DNA of 25,175 bases from Candidatus Hodarchaeota archaeon (GTDB lineage Archaea > Asgardarchaeota > Lokiarchaeia > Sigyniarchaeales > SOKP01), in the NCBI GenBank assembly GCA_048887225.1, contig JBHLJY010000029.1, positions 1 through 25,175 on the forward strand. The letters run 5' to 3'. Below the pieces are notes generated by a model. The model was given only the letters and a program-made list of their open reading frames with translations, was not told the origin of the DNA and did not search any database. Shown in pieces: positions 3 to 10,098 of this stretch; positions within the stretch are counted from its first letter, which is position 1; every line of letters starts with the position of its first letter. A program made the position numbers and the translations under genes.

Positions 3-338
3 GAACATCTTAAGGTTAAGAAAAGAGAAGCAGCTCTAATTGCTAACTTGTATAAATCAAAATTAGATAAAGAGAAAATTGAAAAGGAATATGATTTAGA
101 GGTTGCACAAAAGAAAGTTTCTAACATGGTTGACGAAGCTATTAAAATAGCAAGAGAATATGAATTTGCTATCCGAAGAGGTTTACAGTCTGAAGACCAA
201 AGCACCTATTTAAGAGTAATCGAAATTTTTAAAAAAGTTAGAACAATGGTTTTAGAACATGGACTAAAAGACCAAGCTGAGATATATACTAAACAAATTC
301 AATTGTATCAAAATAAACTAAAATCTATGAATAAATGA
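3..338 (+). CDS. 3' end of a helical-repeat protein (5'-truncated by window), paralogous to the downstream 1474-aa protein
   Basis: The frame is open from position 3 (EHLKVKKREAALIANLYK...), so the TTG at 48 is probably not the start. The segment VSNMVDEAIKIAREYEFAIRRG...YLRVIEIFKKVRTMVLEHGLKDQAEIYTKQIQLYQNKL matches the repeat unit of the next gene. Its stop overlaps the next start (ATGA, 335-338). Confidence 0.85.
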   Translation, partial: EHLKVKKREAALIANLYKSKLDKEKIEKEYDLEVAQKKVSNMVDEAIKIAREYEFAIRRGLQSEDQSTYLRVIEIFKKVRTMVLEHGLKDQAEIYTKQIQLYQNKLKSMNK

Positions 339-3300
339 GCAAGATGGACGAAAATATTAATAAAAAGGAAAAAAACAACGAGGATTTCGATAATGAAGAA
401 CTGAAACGCCCCAAAGATGATTTTTTCGCCGATTTAATTGAAATGGATGATGAAGTCACCACCGAGGCCCTTGAGCTCGTTGAACATGCTTCATCTTTAA
501 TTGATTCGCAATTCTTTGATGATGCGATCGAAATTCTGCGTAAAGCTATTGCTTTATATAGCGAAATCGGTAGGGATGATGAGATTGATACAATAAACCA
601 AAAAATTTCAGAAATATATATTTTGAAAGAACAGGCATTTAGAGAAGGTGAATTTGAACCTATCAAAATTCCAGAAGAATTAAGAACGCAATACATTGAT
701 AATGAGCAATTAGTAGAAAAAATTGAAGAGGATTTGTCCCAAATAGCAGAAAAATTAATTGAAGAAGCAAATAAATTATTAGAAATTGATGAATTTGACG
801 AGGCGATTGAGAAATATGACGAAGTTATTAAGATATTTCAAAAAGAGAAAAAAGAATCTGAAATTGAAAAAATATATGAATTAATAGATAAATGTTACGA
901 TGCGAAAGCTGAATTTCTAAAAAGACCTAAAGTAGATTTAGAGATCCAAGAAACCTCAAAAATGGAAGAACCTGCTAAATTAAAGGACGAACTTAAAGAA
1001 AAAGAAAAAGCTAAAAGAATTGCTGAAATTGAAAAGAAAAAGCAAGATGAAGAGGATTTTCGAAAAAAAATTTCATATATGACAACTGAAGCTGAGAAAA
1101 TGGAAAGAGAATACGAGCTTAGTATTAAAAAAGGTAATTTTGATTTAGAGCCTCCATTCAATAAAATTATAGAAATTTATAAGAATATTCAGAGTATGCT
1201 TCTCGAAAGGGAATGGAAAGAGGAAGCTAATATATATTTTAATCAAATTAAATTAATTAAACAAAAATTAGAAAAAGATAAAAAACTACGAGAGGTTGAA
1301 GCTCAGAAAAGAGAACGGGATAAAGAATATTTAGAATCTTTTAAAATTAAGAAAATCGAAGGTGAGGATTTAGATAGATTAAAAGCTGTTGAAACAAAAC
1401 GCAGAGTAGACGAAAGGTTTCAACAACAAATCGATAAGATGGTTGGCGAGGCTGAAAAATTAGATAGGAAATATGAATTAGAAATTAGAAGAGGGAATTT
1501 TGACACAGAACCTCCTTTTGAAAATGTTATCAAGATTTACGAGGATGTAAGAGAATTGCTTCTTGAAAAAGGTTGGAAAGATCAAGCTAACTTGTATTGG
1601 AACCAAATAAAATTAGTTAAAGATAAATTAGAAAATGATAAGAGATTGAGAAAAATCGAAGCTCAGAAAATTCAAAAACAAAAACAATATGAAGAAATGA
1701 TAAAGACAAAAAAAGAAGATAAAATATTAAAAGCAGATCTAGAAGAATTAAAGGAAATTGAGACACGTTATCAAAAAGAATTAGAGGACGAAAATTTCGA
1801 AAATAGAATAACTAGCTTAGTTGATAAAGCGGATAATATGGTTAGAAAATACGAATTAGGCATTAGGTATGGCCAATTTTTTCAAGAATGTGTATATCCA
1901 ACGGTTATTAATATTTACAAAGAAATAAGAAAAATGCTGTTAATGAAGGGCTGGAAGGACGAGGCACAGATCTATTACAATCAGATAAAACTTTACGAAG
2001 ATAAGTTGGAACAAGATAAAAAATTAAGGGAAATTGAAGCTCAAAAAAGAGAACGAGATATGGCATATCTAAAATCGCTAAAAACTGCCAAAGAAGTAAG
2101 TATTGATTTAGAAAAAATGAAAACAATTGAAGTAAAATATAAAGAAGATGAGATTTTTCAACAAAAAATTAATGATATGGTTACTAAGGCCCAAAGAACT
2201 CTAAAAGAATATGAATTAGAGATTAGAAAGGGTAATTTTGATACCAAATCTCCATTTAAAGAAACTATTGAGATATATTCCGATGTTCACAAAATGCTTA
2301 TTAAAAGAGGTTGGGTTGATCAGGCTAAAGTTTATTTAAATCAAATTGAATTAATTAAACAAAAACAAGAAAAAGACAGAAAATTAAGAGAAATCGAAGC
2401 TCAAAAAATACAAAAACAAATGGAATTCGAAGCACAACTAAAAGTTAAAAAAGGAGTTAAAGGACTTGAATTTCAAAAGTTAAAAGAGCTTGAAATTAAA
2501 AAAGGTGAGGGAGATATCTTAATAGATAAAGCTTTCAGTTTCATTGAGGAAGCTGAAAGGATAGTAAAAGACTATGGATTCAAAATAAAAACGGGTATAT
2601 TGTTTTATAAAAATCCCTACGATAAAGTTATATCGTTGTATAAAGAAGCGAGAAAAATATTTTTAGAAAATAATTGGGAAACTGAAGCTTCTCGTTTAAT
2701 TAGTACCATCAAATTTTATAAAGATAAACAGAAGAAAGACGAAAATTTACGTGCTTTGGAAGTAAATAGATTAGCTAAAGCAAAAGAAAAGCCTGAGGCT
2801 CCTATAATCAAGCCGAAAAAGAGGATTTTAGAAAAAGAGGAAATGATTTCAGAATTTGAAAAAGAGAAAAAAAAAAGAGAGGAATTATCGAGTGAAGCAT
2901 TTGAAATGATCGATAAGGCAGAAAAATTAGTGAAAGTTTATGAATTTAATCTAAAGGAGGGTCTCTTTTTAGATTGCCCCTACGAGCAAGTCATTGATAT
3001 TTATAGAAAAGCAAGAAAGAGATTTGAGGAAATCGGTTGGGAAGAGCAATCAGCTAATTTAATAAACACAATTAACCATTATAAAGAAAAATTAGAAGCA
3101 GATAAAAAATTAAGAACATTAGAGAAGGAAAAAATTGAAAAACAAAAGAAGGAATTAGAGGAGCGCCAAAAATTAGCAGAGAAAGCCAGAAAGAAAAAAG
3201 AAGTGATGCTTAAACAAAGAGAAAGGGCCTTATTGGTAAAAAGTAAAGAAATATCCCCGTTTGAAACTCAAAAAGATCACGCCTTTAGACTCATGGATCA

Positions 3301-4759
3301 AGCTAAATATCAATTTAATATGAACAATTTTGACCTTGCGATTGAATTATATAAAGAAAGCGAAAATATTTTCTCAAAAATAAATTGGCCAGCAGGTATT
3401 AGAATGATTAAAGACTCAATTCAATTAATTTCTAAGAAAAAAGAAGAATTTGGACTTAGACAGAAAGTTATTGAAGAAAAAGAATCTGAAGCGTTAATTT
3501 CAGAAAAAAAATTGGGAGAAAAAATAGCTGAGTCTCAGGATTTACTGAAATTGCAACAAGAACGGAAGAGAAAAGAATTATTAAGAATTCAAGAACAGAA
3601 AGCAAAAGAAAAGGAAGCTTCAGATAGAGCATACGATTTACTTGAACAAGGAACAAGGCTATTAAATCTTAAAAAATTCGACGAAGCATACGAAAAATAT
3701 ATCTTGGCTCGCAATATTTTTACTCAAATTGGATGGGTTCATGAAGTTAGCCGTATTAACAATGATCTCTTGCTTAAACTTAAAAAAGACGAAAAGATGA
3801 GTAAAAAACAAGAAGAGTATAAAATAAAGAAAATACAAGAAGAAAAAGAAATTGAAACTCTGTTAAAAGAAGCAGAGATACAAAAGGAGGAGCTTAAAAA
3901 GGTTAAGGAAAAAGAAAAGCGTGAGAAATTGTTTAAAATTCAGATTTCCGATAAAATTAGGGGAAGAATAAAAGATAAACTAAATGAAGCAAATATTGAA
4001 ATTATTAAATTCAAATATAATGAAGGGATATTGATCCTCAAAAATGTTATTGAAATGATGGAAAAATTAGGCTGGAAAAAGGAAATCGAAGATGTAAATG
4101 AACAAATCCAAGTAATAAAAACAAAGAGCCAAGTCCCTCTTGTTGTTTTGGAGGAATTTGATGCTAATGAGAATATGCAAAAAATAAAATCTGCATACGA
4201 GGCATTAGATAAAGCACAAATGTCGGTGTTAAAAGATCGCTTTATGAAAGCTATTTCGGAATTAAATGAAGCAAAATTCAACCTTTCTGAAACTAAAATA
4301 AGAAAGAAATTCATACAAGAAATCGAAGCCAAAATTGAATCTTTCAAAAAAGAAGTTGACAAGAGAATAAAAGTTAAATCAGTGCGGGAAGCTAAAAAAA
4401 TCGGAGAAAAAGAAGCTGCGAAACTTACAGCTGAAAAAGCATATAATTTTATGGACAAATGCAAAAAAGCAGAGAGGCGAAATAGATTTGAAAAGGCAAT
4501 AGAATGTGCTATGGAAGCTAAAAATATTTTTTCTGAAATGGGTCCAGAGTGGATTAAAGAACAAGAGACAATAGATAAATACATAGACTCTTTAAAAAGC
4601 AAAAAGATAGAAAGAGAGCAGTTGTTTAAGCGTAAAAAAGAAGAAATTGAGAAAAAAGAACAATCTTTAAAGAAAGAAGAACAAGATTTCAAGGCAAGAA
4701 TAGCCGCCAGAAGAGAAGAAAGACGTAATAGGATTAAGGAATTAATGAAAAAAAAATAA
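335..4759 (+). CDS. Giant (1474 aa) K/E-rich helical repeat/coiled-coil protein with ~13 MIT/TPR-like three-helix units; function unknown
   Basis: Long ORF with a recurring pattern A-x-x-(L/M)-(I/V)-x-x-A ... (F/Y)-x-x-(A/V)-I-x-(L/I)-Y ... (F/L)-x-x-x-(G/N)-W ... I-x-x-(I/Y)-K, separated by charged coiled-coil linkers. No Walker motifs or transmembrane segments are visible. Confidence 0.85.
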   Translation: MSKMDENINKKEKNNEDFDNEELKRPKDDFFADLIEMDDEVTTEALELVEHASSLIDSQFFDDAIEILRKAIALYSEIGRDDEIDTINQKISEIYILKEQAFREGEFEPIKIPEELRTQYIDNEQLVEKIEEDLSQIAEKLIEEANKLLEIDEFDEAIEKYDEVIKIFQKEKKESEIEKIYELIDKCYDAKAEFLKRPKVDLEIQETSKMEEPAKLKDELKEKEKAKRIAEIEKKKQDEEDFRKKISYMTTEAEKMEREYELSIKKGNFDLEPPFNKIIEIYKNIQSMLLEREWKEEANIYFNQIKLIKQKLEKDKKLREVEAQKRERDKEYLESFKIKKIEGEDLDRLKAVETKRRVDERFQQQIDKMVGEAEKLDRKYELEIRRGNFDTEPPFENVIKIYEDVRELLLEKGWKDQANLYWNQIKLVKDKLENDKRLRKIEAQKIQKQKQYEEMIKTKKEDKILKADLEELKEIETRYQKELEDENFENRITSLVDKADNMVRKYELGIRYGQFFQECVYPTVINIYKEIRKMLLMKGWKDEAQIYYNQIKLYEDKLEQDKKLREIEAQKRERDMAYLKSLKTAKEVSIDLEKMKTIEVKYKEDEIFQQKINDMVTKAQRTLKEYELEIRKGNFDTKSPFKETIEIYSDVHKMLIKRGWVDQAKVYLNQIELIKQKQEKDRKLREIEAQKIQKQMEFEAQLKVKKGVKGLEFQKLKELEIKKGEGDILIDKAFSFIEEAERIVKDYGFKIKTGILFYKNPYDKVISLYKEARKIFLENNWETEASRLISTIKFYKDKQKKDENLRALEVNRLAKAKEKPEAPIIKPKKRILEKEEMISEFEKEKKKREELSSEAFEMIDKAEKLVKVYEFNLKEGLFLDCPYEQVIDIYRKARKRFEEIGWEEQSANLINTINHYKEKLEADKKLRTLEKEKIEKQKKELEERQKLAEKARKKKEVMLKQRERALLVKSKEISPFETQKDHAFRLMDQAKYQFNMNNFDLAIELYKESENIFSKINWPAGIRMIKDSIQLISKKKEEFGLRQKVIEEKESEALISEKKLGEKIAESQDLLKLQQERKRKELLRIQEQKAKEKEASDRAYDLLEQGTRLLNLKKFDEAYEKYILARNIFTQIGWVHEVSRINNDLLLKLKKDEKMSKKQEEYKIKKIQEEKEIETLLKEAEIQKEELKKVKEKEKREKLFKIQISDKIRGRIKDKLNEANIEIIKFKYNEGILILKNVIEMMEKLGWKKEIEDVNEQIQVIKTKSQVPLVVLEEFDANENMQKIKSAYEALDKAQMSVLKDRFMKAISELNEAKFNLSETKIRKKFIQEIEAKIESFKKEVDKRIKVKSVREAKKIGEKEAAKLTAEKAYNFMDKCKKAERRNRFEKAIECAMEAKNIFSEMGPEWIKEQETIDKYIDSLKSKKIEREQLFKRKKEEIEKKEQSLKKEEQDFKARIAARREERRNRIKELMKKK
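1052..3150 (+). repeat. Six ~120-126-aa intragenic tandem repeat units (first four most conserved)
   Basis: The Ala codon of the EAQK anchor recurs at 1301, 1661, 2039 and 2399 (spacing 360/378/360 nt). The motifs YEL.I..G.F, GW...A..Y.NQI.L and KDKKLRE.EAQK repeat. Boundaries are approximate. Confidence 0.85.
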
Positions 4760-5981: not shown

Positions 5982-6190
5982 AAATTCTGAATTTAGGATT
6001 AAATAAAATAAAACTTAATATTAATTTCTCGCTCTCTTAAAATTTTTATAAAAGAAAAATCAAAATTTATAAGAGATAATTGAATAAAAATTACATATCT
6101 TTTAGTTTAATTATTAAGTAAAGCATAAGAAAATAAAAATTAAGTTAAAAAAACGTAATTTTAATCAACAATTCGTTCTAATGGTTTATC

Positions 6191-6652
6191 ATGAATAATA
6201 TTAGAGTTGAGATTGCTTCTCCAAAGCATATAAATGCGTTAGAGAATTTTACAAGACAATTAGTAGAGGGTTTAGGCCAGAAATTTGATTCTAAGCGCTT
6301 CGATTGGGGAATCAGTAGAAGACTTTATGATCCACTTCAACGTCATGGAATTTTGATAGCTATTGATGAAGATACTGACGATCCAGTAGGTATGATAATA
6401 GCAGAGCTTCGAATAGATCCATTTGGTATGTCAGAAGGATATATTAAGCAGTTTTTTTTAAAGAGCAATTATAGAAAAAAAGGCATAGGACGGATTTTAT
6501 TACAAAAAGCTCTCGACCATTTGAAGAAAATCAAGGTTGAAAGAGTAAAAGTAAATATTAAAGATGAAGCTGTAGAAGCCTTAAAACTTTACGAAAAGAT
6601 GCATTTTAAGAAAATTTATGAGGTTTTAGAATTAGATCTCACAAAAGACTAA
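6191..6652 (+). CDS. GNAT family N-acetyltransferase
   Basis: Acetyl-CoA binding motif A (YRKKGIGRILL), a preceding beta-strand GYIKQFFL, and C-terminal A..LYEKMHF. Confidence 0.85.
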   Translation: MNNIRVEIASPKHINALENFTRQLVEGLGQKFDSKRFDWGISRRLYDPLQRHGILIAIDEDTDDPVGMIIAELRIDPFGMSEGYIKQFFLKSNYRKKGIGRILLQKALDHLKKIKVERVKVNIKDEAVEALKLYEKMHFKKIYEVLELDLTKD

Positions 6653-6674: not shown

Positions 6675-7658
6675 ATGATGACACTTGATTTAGAGATCCC
6701 TTGGATTGAAAAATATAGGCCTCAGAGATTTGATGAGATAGTAAGTCAAAATATTGCAATAAATAGTTTAAGAGATTTTGTCAAAAAAGGTAACATGCCT
6801 CACATGATCTTTACGGGGCCCGCAGGAACAGGAAAGACAAGTACAGCTTTGATAATAGCAAAAACATTACTAGAAGGTGAAAAATACTATAGAAATCTTT
6901 TAGAATTAAATGCCTCAGACACGGTGAGAATGCAATATATAAGAGATATCCTTAAATCCTTTGTTAATTCAAGTATGATGATAGAAGAAGATTCTTTAAA
7001 AATTGTTATTTTAGATGAAGCAGATAATATTCCTGGGCAAGTTCAACAAGCACTTAGACGAATTATGGAACGGTCTTCAAGAAATGTAAAATTCATTTTA
7101 TTATGTAATTATATAAATCGAATAATAGATCCAATTATTTCTAGATGCGCAGTATTTCGATTCGTTAACCTTCCTAAGGAGAAAATTGTGGAAAGATTGA
7201 AATATATCGCAAAGCAAGAAAACTTGCCAATTCCAAACAATAAAGTGGAGATATTCTTTGATACTCTATATTTTATCTCAGGAGGTGATTTAAGGAAAGC
7301 AATAAATACGCTACAAATGTCAGTTGCTCTTGAATTATTAGAAAATTTAGATGTCAATGAAATTCTAAAAATATCTGGATTTGTGGATCAAGAAACTTTA
7401 GAGAAGTTTATGGAGGCATTTCAATCTAAAGATTTCGAGAGTGCAAGAGAAATATTAAGTTCAATTGAAACTTTTGATAGTAGAAACTTTATCAGACAAC
7501 TTATAGATATTGTGTCAAGGATTAATTTAAAGTCTGATAAAATTCACTATTTGCGTGCGCTTTTTGGTGATATTGATTTCCGAATAAGTCAAGGTGCAGA
7601 CGAGAAAGTTCAGATATTAGCTCTAATAGCTGAGATTATAAATCAAGTAGATAAATGA
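6675..7658 (+). CDS. rfcS: Replication factor C small subunit (catalytically intact)
   Basis: PWIEKYRP, Walker A GPAGTGKT, ELNASD, Walker B ILDEAD, QQALRR, sensor-1 CN, SRC arginine finger, sensor-2 GDLR. No intein. Confidence 0.95.
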   Translation: MMTLDLEIPWIEKYRPQRFDEIVSQNIAINSLRDFVKKGNMPHMIFTGPAGTGKTSTALIIAKTLLEGEKYYRNLLELNASDTVRMQYIRDILKSFVNSSMMIEEDSLKIVILDEADNIPGQVQQALRRIMERSSRNVKFILLCNYINRIIDPIISRCAVFRFVNLPKEKIVERLKYIAKQENLPIPNNKVEIFFDTLYFISGGDLRKAINTLQMSVALELLENLDVNEILKISGFVDQETLEKFMEAFQSKDFESAREILSSIETFDSRNFIRQLIDIVSRINLKSDKIHYLRALFGDIDFRISQGADEKVQILALIAEIINQVDK

Positions 7659-7668
7659 GGATAAAAAC

Positions 7669-8718
7669 TTGAGTGAAGATATTCCGATTTGGAGAATTAA
7701 ATATTTACCAAGAACGTTGGATGATATTTGCGGTAGGGAAAAAATTAAGGAAAGATTAAAAAAAATTATTAAGCAGAGAAATTTTCCACATCTTTTATTC
7801 GTAGGCTCTGAAGGTATTGGGAAAACAACTTTAACAACTTTATTTTCAAAAGAATTCCTTGGTAGATATTATGATGCGAATTTTAAATTGGTATATGCCA
7901 ATGTTCCGTTAACGGTGGAGGAAAGAAAGCAAGCGGAGGCTGAAGTACATGTTCCAACAAGTAGAATTGGAAGTACGGCGGGGAAAACTTTTAGACCACC
8001 TTGGTTTATTCAGGCTAGAGTTAAACCTTTTGTTCAATTGAAAGTGTTTGGAGACGTCCCTTTCAAAATCTTGATTATTAAAAATTTTGATGCCCTAAAT
8101 AATACCAATATGCAAGGTTTTAGAAGGGTAATGGAAATTTATGGTTCTAATTGTAGAATGATCTTGATAACAACTAAAATTTCTGGAGTAATTGACCCTA
8201 TTGTGAGTCGATGCCAATTGTTTTTAATTTCTCAAGTAGATCTTGACTCTTTTAAAGAATTAATGAATAAAATTGCTGATAATGAATCGTTTGAAATTGA
8301 AGACAATGTTATAGAAACACTTTATAATATTTCTGAGGGAAAACTATCTCGAGCGATAGATATATTGCAATTATCAAGTATAAGTGGAAAAACCATAGAT
8401 TCGAATAAGTTGTTTGTATATTCTCAAAAATTTCAAAATGATTTAATTAGGAGTTTATTATTGATGGCATTAAGAGGAGACTTTCCAAAATCAAGAGATC
8501 TCTCGCGAAATATCATATCCACTTATAAGTACACACCTCACGAGCTTTTTAATATCATACTTAACGAACTTAATAAACTGCCGCTAAGTAAATTTGCCCG
8601 AGCCCATTTAATTAATTTAATTGCTGATGCTGATTTCAGGGCTCTCGATAGTCTAGATGGAGACATTCAAATATCTGCGTTGTTGTCAAAAATTTGCTTA
8701 TTTTCAGAACATTTATAA
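7669..8718 (+). CDS. Divergent second replication factor C small subunit (RFC-S2-like), predicted ATPase-inactive
   Basis: IWRIKYLP, PHLLFVGSEGIGKT, RRVME, IDPIVSRC and a C-terminal collar (ADADFR...IQISALL) are RFC-S-like. Walker B reads IIKNFD and sensor-2 reads GKLS. TTG start after a GAGG motif. Confidence 0.9.
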   Translation: MSEDIPIWRIKYLPRTLDDICGREKIKERLKKIIKQRNFPHLLFVGSEGIGKTTLTTLFSKEFLGRYYDANFKLVYANVPLTVEERKQAEAEVHVPTSRIGSTAGKTFRPPWFIQARVKPFVQLKVFGDVPFKILIIKNFDALNNTNMQGFRRVMEIYGSNCRMILITTKISGVIDPIVSRCQLFLISQVDLDSFKELMNKIADNESFEIEDNVIETLYNISEGKLSRAIDILQLSSISGKTIDSNKLFVYSQKFQNDLIRSLLLMALRGDFPKSRDLSRNIISTYKYTPHELFNIILNELNKLPLSKFARAHLINLIADADFRALDSLDGDIQISALLSKICLFSEHL

Positions 8719-8736
8719 GAAATAATGGTGAAAAAA

Positions 8737-10098
8737 TTGGCTAAAAAAAAATCTGTCAAATTAAACGTTCCATGGGTCGAAAAGTACCGGCCCAAAAGTG
8801 TCAAAGAAATGGCCCTCCCAACAGCTAAAGTTGGCGGGCATAGAGTTAATTTGGCAGAAGATTTAACGAAGTTTATAAAAAATTTTTTCAAAGAAATGAA
8901 AAGAATAAATGCTGAAAATAAACTTATCAGAGCAAATAATAGAACTGCTTCGGAAAAAGTAAAGAAAGAAGAGATAAAAATGGCTCCTGAAAGAGCAGCA
9001 GTATTATTAGAAGGACCGCCTGGAATTGGAAAAACTTCTATTGTTTATGCTTTAGCAAACGATTTAAATATGGAAGTGATTGAAACAAATGCTTCTGATA
9101 CTCGAACAAGAGAAGCACTCGAAAATAAATTGAAAGAAACTATTAAATCTCGAGGGATTATGGATTTTGTGGCTCAATCAAAAAAAAAACTCATTCTTAT
9201 TGACGAGATCGACGGCATTTATGGAACGAGAGATAGAGGAGCAGTTCCCACAATAGTGGATTTAATTCAAAATACACAATTTCCGATTATTATGTGCTCC
9301 AACGCGTACAAACAAAGTTTACAACCACTTTATAACAAAATTCGAAAGTTTGAAGTTCATTCATTATCTGAAGATGATATGATAAAAATTGCTCAAAACA
9401 TTCTCAGAAAAGAAAATATTATAAATCTTAAAAAGGATGATTTGGACCTTATCGTTAAAAAGAACAATGGTGATTTAAGAGGTGTTATTAATGATATTCA
9501 GGGAATTGCTCAAGGTTCGACTGAAATAGATAATAAAGAGTTAATATATAGTTTAAATAGGGACAGTACAGAGGAGATTTTTGCGTTAATTAGAGATTTA
9601 TTTCAAAAAACTACAACATTAAGAGAAGTTCGAGATTTAACTGATAAATCGGATGTCGATTATAATTTTTTATATAAATGGGTAAACGAAAATCTACCAA
9701 CATTCATTAAAATCAATAAAGAACTAGCAAACGCTTACGAAAATCTCTCTTTGGCTGATGAGATTTTTGGACGTATTCGAAAAAATCAATACTGGGGGTT
9801 GCTGCCTTATTTTTACGATCTCTTTACTGGGGGAGTCAGCCTGGCACAATTACATAAAACTAGCGGTTTTCGAAGAGTTTTATTCCCGAGATATGTGATA
9901 GGAGGAGCATTCTCTTTAACCAATGCCGAGAAGGATTTAATTGAAAAAATTAATAAAACTTACGATATATCGCAAATTGAAGCAATACAAGACTTTATTC
10001 CATTCTTAAAGATTTTATGCAACAGTTCACGACGACAATTAAAAAACATTAGTGAGTGGCTTGAATTAGATGCGAAAGAAAAGAAGTTATTAAAATGA
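8737..10098 (+). CDS. rfcL: Replication factor C large subunit
   Basis: PWVEKYRPKS, Walker A GPPGIGKTS, ETNASD, KKLILIDEIDG, GDLRGVINDIQ, WVNEN, AYENLSLAD, YWGLLPY. Start placed at TTG 8737 (GGTGA SD 5 nt upstream); the ORF track gives ATG 8725. Confidence 0.93.
   Translation: MAKKKSVKLNVPWVEKYRPKSVKEMALPTAKVGGHRVNLAEDLTKFIKNFFKEMKRINAENKLIRANNRTASEKVKKEEIKMAPERAAVLLEGPPGIGKTSIVYALANDLNMEVIETNASDTRTREALENKLKETIKSRGIMDFVAQSKKKLILIDEIDGIYGTRDRGAVPTIVDLIQNTQFPIIMCSNAYKQSLQPLYNKIRKFEVHSLSEDDMIKIAQNILRKENIINLKKDDLDLIVKKNNGDLRGVINDIQGIAQGSTEIDNKELIYSLNRDSTEEIFALIRDLFQKTTTLREVRDLTDKSDVDYNFLYKWVNENLPTFIKINKELANAYENLSLADEIFGRIRKNQYWGLLPYFYDLFTGGVSLAQLHKTSGFRRVLFPRYVIGGAFSLTNAEKDLIEKINKTYDISQIEAIQDFIPFLKILCNSSRRQLKNISEWLELDAKEKKLLK

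Follow-up and report, generated by a model that had tools for sequence, protein, structure and literature searches.

An rfcS3-rfcS2-rfcL clamp-loader operon in a Lokiarchaeales genome, encoding a small subunit with a degenerate active site and a conserved arginine finger

Which kind of clamp loader is produced by an archaeal genome in which two different small subunits and the large subunit of replication factor C (RFC) are encoded side by side? The question is raised by a stretch of 25,175 nt from Candidatus Hodarchaeota archaeon (assembly GCA_048887225.1, contig JBHLJY010000029.1, positions 1 to 25,175 of the forward strand), hereafter the window, and it bears on how the archaeal 1+4 complex gave rise to the heteropentameric clamp loader of eukaryotes. 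The locus is an rfcS3-rfcS2-rfcL clamp-loader operon of a Lokiarchaeales (Promethearchaeota) genome and, together with an unlinked rfcS1 gene, it very probably specifies a four-component, eukaryote-like RFC clamp loader in which RfcS2 most likely sits at position E. Feng et al. 2025 (Nat Ecol Evol, PMC12680538) have already reported this finding together with biochemical work; an initial annotation of the window, made from the letters alone, had suspected that an expanded RFC was on record for Lokiarchaeales, and since it was right in this the finding is no novelty. What the window contributes is a further genome with this arrangement, and an independent confirmation of its order-wide conservation and of purifying selection. 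Gene content, motifs, conservation, synteny and selection were determined here, while complex formation is taken from the literature on orthologues.

The three genes lie head to tail on one strand, with spacers of 10 nt (S3-S2) and 6 nt (S2-L), and the tandem of two small-subunit genes and one large-subunit gene that had been read from the sequence was borne out, coordinates included:

rfcS3, 6675-7658, + strand: 327 aa, divergent RFC small subunit with complete catalytic motifs, matched by NF001679
rfcS2, 7669-8718, + strand: 349 aa, TTG start, small subunit that is ATPase-dead as judged from its motifs and retains the arginine finger
rfcL, 8725-10098, + strand: 457 aa, RFC large subunit, matched by NF003229

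Their products were scored on NCBIfam models, of which NF001679 is an equivalog model of the RFC small subunit with a curated cut-off of 303 bits, and NF003229 describes the large subunit with a cut-off of 280 bits. RfcS3 (310.5 bits) and RfcL (8725-10095; 295.9 bits) passed their cut-offs, and RfcS2 remained under that of NF001679 with 235.7 bits, in a match split in two by an insertion. By its sequence, RfcS2 is a divergent relative of the RFC small subunits and not an equivalog of NF001679. The Pfam domains found in the operon proteins (AAA, DNA_pol3_delta2 and Rep_fac_C) are those expected for RFC; on RfcS2, Rep_fac_C, the C-terminal collar, covers residues 258-341 with 29.3 bits, above the cut-off of 23.6. 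A recent tandem duplication as the source of S2 and S3 is ruled out by their identity of 26% and by the separate, well-supported clades that they form in the tree described below.

What has RfcS2 kept of an RFC active site, and what has it lost? Its motifs were located by alignment to the RFC small subunits of P. furiosus and A. fulgidus and then mapped to coordinates, and the state of each motif was counted over 36 orthologues from the same order as the window genome:

7699-7710, + strand: KYLP in place of KYRP (Arg to Leu); Arg kept in 2/36 orthologues
7804-7827, + strand: Walker A (P-loop), GSEGIGKT, kept; Lys in 36/36 orthologues, Thr in 31/36
7906-7986, + strand: insertion of 27 aa, residues 80-106, within box IV
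8080-8091, + strand: degenerate Walker B, KNFD in place of DEAD; Asp kept in 2/36 orthologues, Glu in 1/36
8161-8175, + strand: sensor-1 strand, ILITT in place of a strand ending in CN (Asn to Thr); Asn kept in 2/36 orthologues
8206-8214, + strand: SRC, the trans-acting arginine finger, kept; Ser-Arg in 36/36 orthologues, Cys in 35/36
8338-8352, + strand: degenerate sensor 2, GKLSR in place of GDxRR (GKLS at 8338-8349); Arg kept in 0/36 orthologues

Among the RfcS3 orthologues the corresponding residues (Walker A Lys and Thr, the Ser-Arg of SRC, Walker B Asp and Glu, sensor-1 Asn, sensor-2 Arg and the Arg of KYRP) are each kept in 36/36, and the RfcS3 of the window carries the whole set of motifs: KYRP, GPAGTGKT, LELNASD, DEAD, CN, SRC and GDLR. 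In RfcL, GPPGIGKT, IDEIDG, MCSN and GDLRG are complete, and NKI stands where SRC would be expected; read from these motifs, RfcL is a subunit with complete ATPase motifs and no arginine finger. Every motif call that the initial annotation had made for S2 (KYLP, GSEGIGKT, KNFD, TT, SRC and GKLS) proved right on alignment and coordinate mapping, and the insertion that it had placed at the ELNASD site and estimated at ~25 aa is indeed there, measuring 27 aa.

The extent of the degeneration is not the same everywhere in the order. In a second family, the Walker A Thr is lost in 2 of the 4 RfcS2 examined (GKME and GKLE), and the same two proteins (L039:3992-5032, - strand, and L041:4048-5088, + strand) keep the first Walker B Asp (DDFH), from which it follows that the degree of RfcS2 degeneration varies between lineages.

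The next question is whether such a protein is maintained. Full-length S2 orthologues, with 46-79% identity, occur in 64 of the 68 genomes of the window's own family, and weaker ones, also full-length and with 37-45% identity, in 6 of the 7 genomes of the second family. Across 301 genomes of the phylum, no S2 orthologue was found outside the order, where only canonical RfcS or a different paralogue was matched. More than 120 S2 cluster representatives, nearly all of 348 aa, show 66-84% identity; those that are named belong to Promethearchaeota or Lokiarchaeota, and the named genome records agree. Family loci keep the order S3-S2-L on one strand in 29/29 cases, and so do 6/6 loci of more distant genomes within the order (35/35 together). 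The reading frame of S2 is intact in all 36 orthologues, and the ratio of non-synonymous to synonymous substitutions (dN/dS, Nei-Gojobori, against three relatives) is 0.11-0.16 for S2, 0.10-0.17 for S3 and 0.08-0.10 for L, values to be read with dS near saturation. Because of the conservation of its motifs and its dN/dS, we consider S2 a subunit that is specialised and kept up by selection, and not a copy in decay; the initial annotation had made its reading depend on conservation and purifying selection in relatives, and both were found.

Is the operon the whole clamp loader? When the RFC small-subunit model was run against the assembly of the window itself (3.27 Mb, 98% complete), a fourth RFC gene came up, a canonical rfcS1 on contig C2 (G000:C2:50649-51602), which reaches 419 bits on NF001679 against 310.5 for rfcS3. 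Its product (321 aa) matches P. furiosus RFCS with 315 bits, and the S3 of the operon does so with 221 bits. With the canonical RfcS assigned to contig C2, what opens the operon is the divergent paralogue, RfcS3 in the naming of Feng et al. A model search found one RfcL gene only in this 98%-complete genome. In total, four RFC proteins are thus encoded, one more than a three-gene system would have. RfcS1 is the best conserved of the small subunits, with 73-85% identity within the family, and its gene is single-copy and unlinked to the operon in 77 of the 81 genomes of the order; the distance between them is 290 kb on the same contig in genome G204, and ~2.5 Mb in the single-contig genome G210. 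The initial annotation had proposed an L1:S1x3:S2x1 pentamer; since RfcS1 is present as a fourth gene, and the 'S1' of the operon is in fact RfcS3, this is not the established composition. Its interpretation therefore held for the ATPase-dead, arginine-finger subunit, and failed on the composition, having missed the fourth subunit.

The same system has already been described. According to Feng et al. (PMC12680538), Lokiarchaeales encode RfcL, a canonical RfcS1 and two further paralogues, with rfcS1 lying apart from an rfcS3-rfcS2-rfcL operon; RfcS2, in which Walker A and the arginine finger are present and Walker B is absent, was likened to eukaryotic RfcE, and RfcL is without an arginine finger. 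The same authors reported that all four proteins of Ca. Harpocratesius repetitus, co-expressed in E. coli, co-purify in a sequential purification through His-RfcL and Strep-RfcS1. Their AlphaFold3 models, with L:S1:S3:S2 ratios of 1:2:1:1 or 1:1:2:1, place RfcS2 opposite RfcL, at position E, with the insertion, a predicted helix, in the spot of the E-plug, and their trees and topology tests put RfcS2 with RfcE and relate RfcS3 to RfcB/C/D (PMC12680538). A 2026 review restates these points (PMC12993045). H. repetitus is a different genome, and its likeness to the proteins of the window is by published description: the order is the same, as are the operon, the unlinked rfcS1 and the RfcL without arginine finger, and both RfcS2 proteins keep Walker A and the arginine finger, have lost Walker B and carry an insertion midway along the protein. 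In the window S2, the motif pattern, the operon with an unlinked rfcS1 and the insertion (residues 80-106) are all those by which RfcS2 was described.

Compared with that study, what is added here is incremental: the losses of sensor 1 and sensor 2, the erosion of Walker A in the second family and the features of a Thorarchaeota paralogue discussed below. The sensor losses are not in the main text of Feng et al., in which the word 'sensor' has 0 occurrences; the Walker A erosion and the Thorarchaeota features may likewise be additions.

How, then, could RfcS2 work in the complex? The human RfcE subunit is inactive, with ADP bound to it (Gaubitz et al., bioRxiv 10.1101/2020.02.18.953257). We infer that RfcS2 would stand at position E, last in the AAA+ spiral and facing RfcL across the gap; that it would hold nucleotide structurally through its P-loop, in the manner of human RfcE; that its SRC arginine would complete, in trans, the ATP site of the neighbour at position D; and that its 27-aa insertion probably projects into or near the DNA chamber, like the E-plug of RfcE. 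We propose that RfcS2 is unable to hydrolyse nucleotide, having lost the Walker B DE together with sensors 1 and 2. RfcL, with a full active site and no arginine finger, would be at position A, and RfcS3 and RfcS1, both catalytically complete by their motifs, would occupy positions B to D. The assignment of RfcL to position A and of S2 to position E would fit, because such motifs are what the two ends of the spiral should show. A non-catalytic donor of an arginine finger, similar to Rfc5/RFC3, is what the initial annotation had suggested for S2, and this is supported by motif conservation, synteny and selection, and by the published co-purification and AlphaFold3 models.

A closer look at the insertion and at the fold was obtained from an AlphaFold2 model of S2, built with 29 homologues, which shows an RFC small-subunit fold with a mean predicted local distance difference test score (pLDDT) of 86.3. 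Pfam and the model agree on a three-domain fold of S2, with an AAA+ Rossmann domain, a lid and a C-terminal collar. By VIA-align, the model gives a Z of 26.5 to P. furiosus RFCS (1iqp_A, 320 residues) and of 26.8 to human RFC2; in the predicted model, the fold of S2 matches all RFC small subunits (Z 23-27), with a lower root-mean-square deviation for E chains than for the others (9.5 vs ~12 Å), and does not discriminate between subunit classes. The insertion follows the VYAN of S2, which aligns to the LELN of box IV, and in conservation it is on a par with the remainder of S2 (column means of 0.82 and 0.77, respectively). It is modelled as a short helix at 83-91 and then a loop, with pLDDT of 52-54 over residues 91-110. 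The N-terminal 140 residues of S2 were also compared with the PDB, where no match to the insertion itself turned up.

Does the likeness to eukaryotic RfcE reflect common descent? RfcE (yeast Rfc5, human RFC3) resembles S2, as pictured above, in being the non-catalytic last subunit of the spiral with its arginine finger kept, and in binding nucleotide without hydrolysis, in which S2 is likened to it by virtue of the kept P-loop; its E-plug lies at about the same place and has about the same length as the S2 insertion. The tip of the human E-plug comprises residues 75-81 (Gaubitz et al., bioRxiv 10.1101/2020.02.18.953257), close to the insertion at 80-106. Human RFC3 and yeast Rfc5 are also the only chains that align unbroken to the S2 family profile (4-342 vs residues 6-346); every other chain, B/C/D or archaeal, breaks at the insertion, and likewise the insertion splits the alignments of S2 to archaeal RFCS and eukaryotic RfcB/C/D, but not those to RfcE. 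The orthology of S2 and RfcE rests on the published phylogeny of Feng et al. (PMC12680538), as the tree calculated here contains archaeal sequences only.

On the other side, several observations weigh against RfcS2 as the E subunit of such a complex. RfcE has the lowest overall sequence similarity to S2 of all RFC small subunits: in phmmer, S2 scores 165 bits with archaeal RFCS, 80-92 with RfcB/C/D and ~55 with RfcE, and its family profile gives the same ranking (290, 175-195 and 110-133 bits, respectively). The 50 best Foldseek matches of the S2 model include no E chain, and the VIA Z is 23-24 for E chains vs 25-27 for B/C/D. The insertion is modelled as a helix and a low-confidence loop, and not as a beta-hairpin, which is the form of the E-plug in RfcE, where it prolongs the Rossmann sheet. 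The Walker A Thr is replaced in 2 of the 4 S2 orthologues of the second family, hence nucleotide binding by S2 may not be universal. Finally, the co-purification covers the H. repetitus orthologues, and the models in the literature use two different subunit ratios. In a search of a protein-language-model atlas with S2, no eukaryotic RfcE cluster was found, and the nearest ones were Promethearchaeota S2, archaeal RFCS and giant-virus RFC.

Some of these points would be accounted for if the likeness between RfcS2 and RfcE were convergent and the published grouping were a long-branch attraction between two fast-evolving proteins, an explanation that we consider rather unlikely and nonetheless the most serious competitor. 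S2 is least similar to RfcE by phmmer, profile and Foldseek, and its insertion, predicted as helix and loop, differs from the beta-hairpin of the E-plug. On this view, the final subunit of any clamp-loader spiral would be prone to losing catalysis while keeping its arginine finger, as happened in bacterial delta-prime (HolB), an ATPase-dead AAA+ protein that stands at the spiral's end and contributes an arginine finger. Delta-prime is distant from S2 and analogous to it, S2 scoring weakly on delta-prime models (48 bits vs a cut-off of 282). An independent, position-specific specialisation has also occurred in Euryarchaeota, where the RFCS2 of Methanosarcina acetivorans and haloarchaea diverged and is confined to a single position of the 3:1:1 complex (Chia et al. 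2010, PMC2880001). Like the S2 of Lokiarchaeales, euryarchaeal RFCS2 is a second, divergent and position-specific small subunit; the Lokiarchaeales have three small-subunit types, the euryarchaeal system two. Membership of S2 in the euryarchaeal RFCS2 group itself is ruled out by its 167.3 bits on NF009067, which fall short both of the cut-off of 317 and of what it scores on NF001679. Against convergence stand the phylogenies and topology tests of Feng et al. that put RfcE with RfcS2 (PMC12680538), and the fact that no PDB family other than RfcE, which is of nearly equal length, stays collinear with S2 across the insertion.

We built a tree of 59 archaeal sequences with IQ-TREE under LG+C20, with supports from the SH-like approximate likelihood ratio test (SH-aLRT). 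The S2 of Lokiarchaeales form one clade (SH-aLRT 99) and the S3 another (98), S3 being apart from canonical RFCS. The S2 clade lies on long branches (0.83-0.92), which is a further point for convergence, and it groups with a stand-alone RfcS paralogue of another family of the phylum (SH-aLRT 98), its closest archaeal relative in this tree. The database relatives of this paralogue, more than 120 cluster representatives, are named Thorarchaeota. It is a protein of 370-380 aa, found at four loci:

L042:4034-5170, - strand: Thorarchaeota paralogue
L043:3087-4208, - strand: Thorarchaeota paralogue
L044:4053-5174, - strand: Thorarchaeota paralogue
L045:3996-5114, - strand: Thorarchaeota paralogue

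The paralogue shares with S2 an insertion at the same site, with an ER motif in common, and the loss of the sensor-1 Asn (in 3/4 copies). It differs in that its insertion is longer (~48 aa), that all four copies (4/4) retain the Walker B DEAD as well as the sensor-2 Arg, and that it adjoins no S3, L or other RFC gene at 4/4 loci. As a lead only, if the grouping of S2 with the Thorarchaeota paralogue is real, both being on long branches, the insertion would be older than the loss of catalysis. The Thorarchaeota paralogue would then be a surviving intermediate, in which a plug-like insertion arose before the subunit at position E lost its catalysis. In the same tree, the RfcS of locus L072 (WJJB01000276.1, labelled Candidatus Bathyarchaeota Bin_245) joins the RfcS3 clade of Lokiarchaeales (SH-aLRT 99) by a long branch; the contig could be an Asgard one that was mis-binned, or the gene could be RfcS3-like and lie outside Lokiarchaeales.

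Could the four proteins instead form two loaders? By analogy with the eukaryotic RFC-like complexes, one RfcL could be shared by a self-contained, operon-encoded and eukaryote-like L:S3x3:S2 loader, which corresponds to the pentamer of the initial annotation with 'S1' exchanged for S3, and a canonical L:S1x4 loader, the two having different tasks, and alternative loaders would then be made by exchanging small subunits rather than large ones. We regard this as unlikely, and as less probable than convergence, although part of the gene content would suit it: S3, S2 and L are always in one operon and S1 is always elsewhere, S3 by itself carries all the motifs that positions B to D require, the high conservation of S1 in the family (73-85%) fits a continued role as a homotetramer, and there is a single L gene. 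However, a purification by tags on RfcL and RfcS1 recovers RfcS2 and RfcS3, which places S1 in the same particles, at least when co-expressed in E. coli (PMC12680538). That RfcS2 is a decaying duplicate or pseudogene with no role in the loader, as the loss of four catalytic motifs and a score under the family cut-off might suggest, has practically no chance of being correct and is refuted by conservation and dN/dS, the frame being intact in 36/36 with 57-84% identity across the family and a dN/dS equal to that of the neighbours, the P-loop Lys, the arginine finger and the place in the operon being invariant, and an orthologue co-purifying with the complex.

Some minor features of the locus deserve mention. 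The start of rfcL is ambiguous: after the ATG at 8725 come GGTGA and, in the same frame, a TTG at 8737. Relatives do not conserve the initial 13-16 residues of RfcL, and their tblastn alignments begin at residues 14-17. A scan for bacterial-type promoters and terminators, a type of scan ill-suited to archaea, gave counts no higher than those of shuffled controls. Upstream of the operon, an open reading frame for a GNAT-type acetyltransferase of 153 aa (6191-6652, + strand) ends 22 nt before rfcS3, and it may be part of the same transcription unit as rfcS3-rfcS2-rfcL. A homologue with 71-78% identity occurs in 5 of the 5 relatives' loci checked (two of the sequences being identical), these loci reaching only 1.5-2.5 kb past rfcS2. 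An AT-rich stretch (6100-6190) precedes the GNAT reading frame and, further upstream in the window, there is an open reading frame of 1474 aa (335-4759, + strand).

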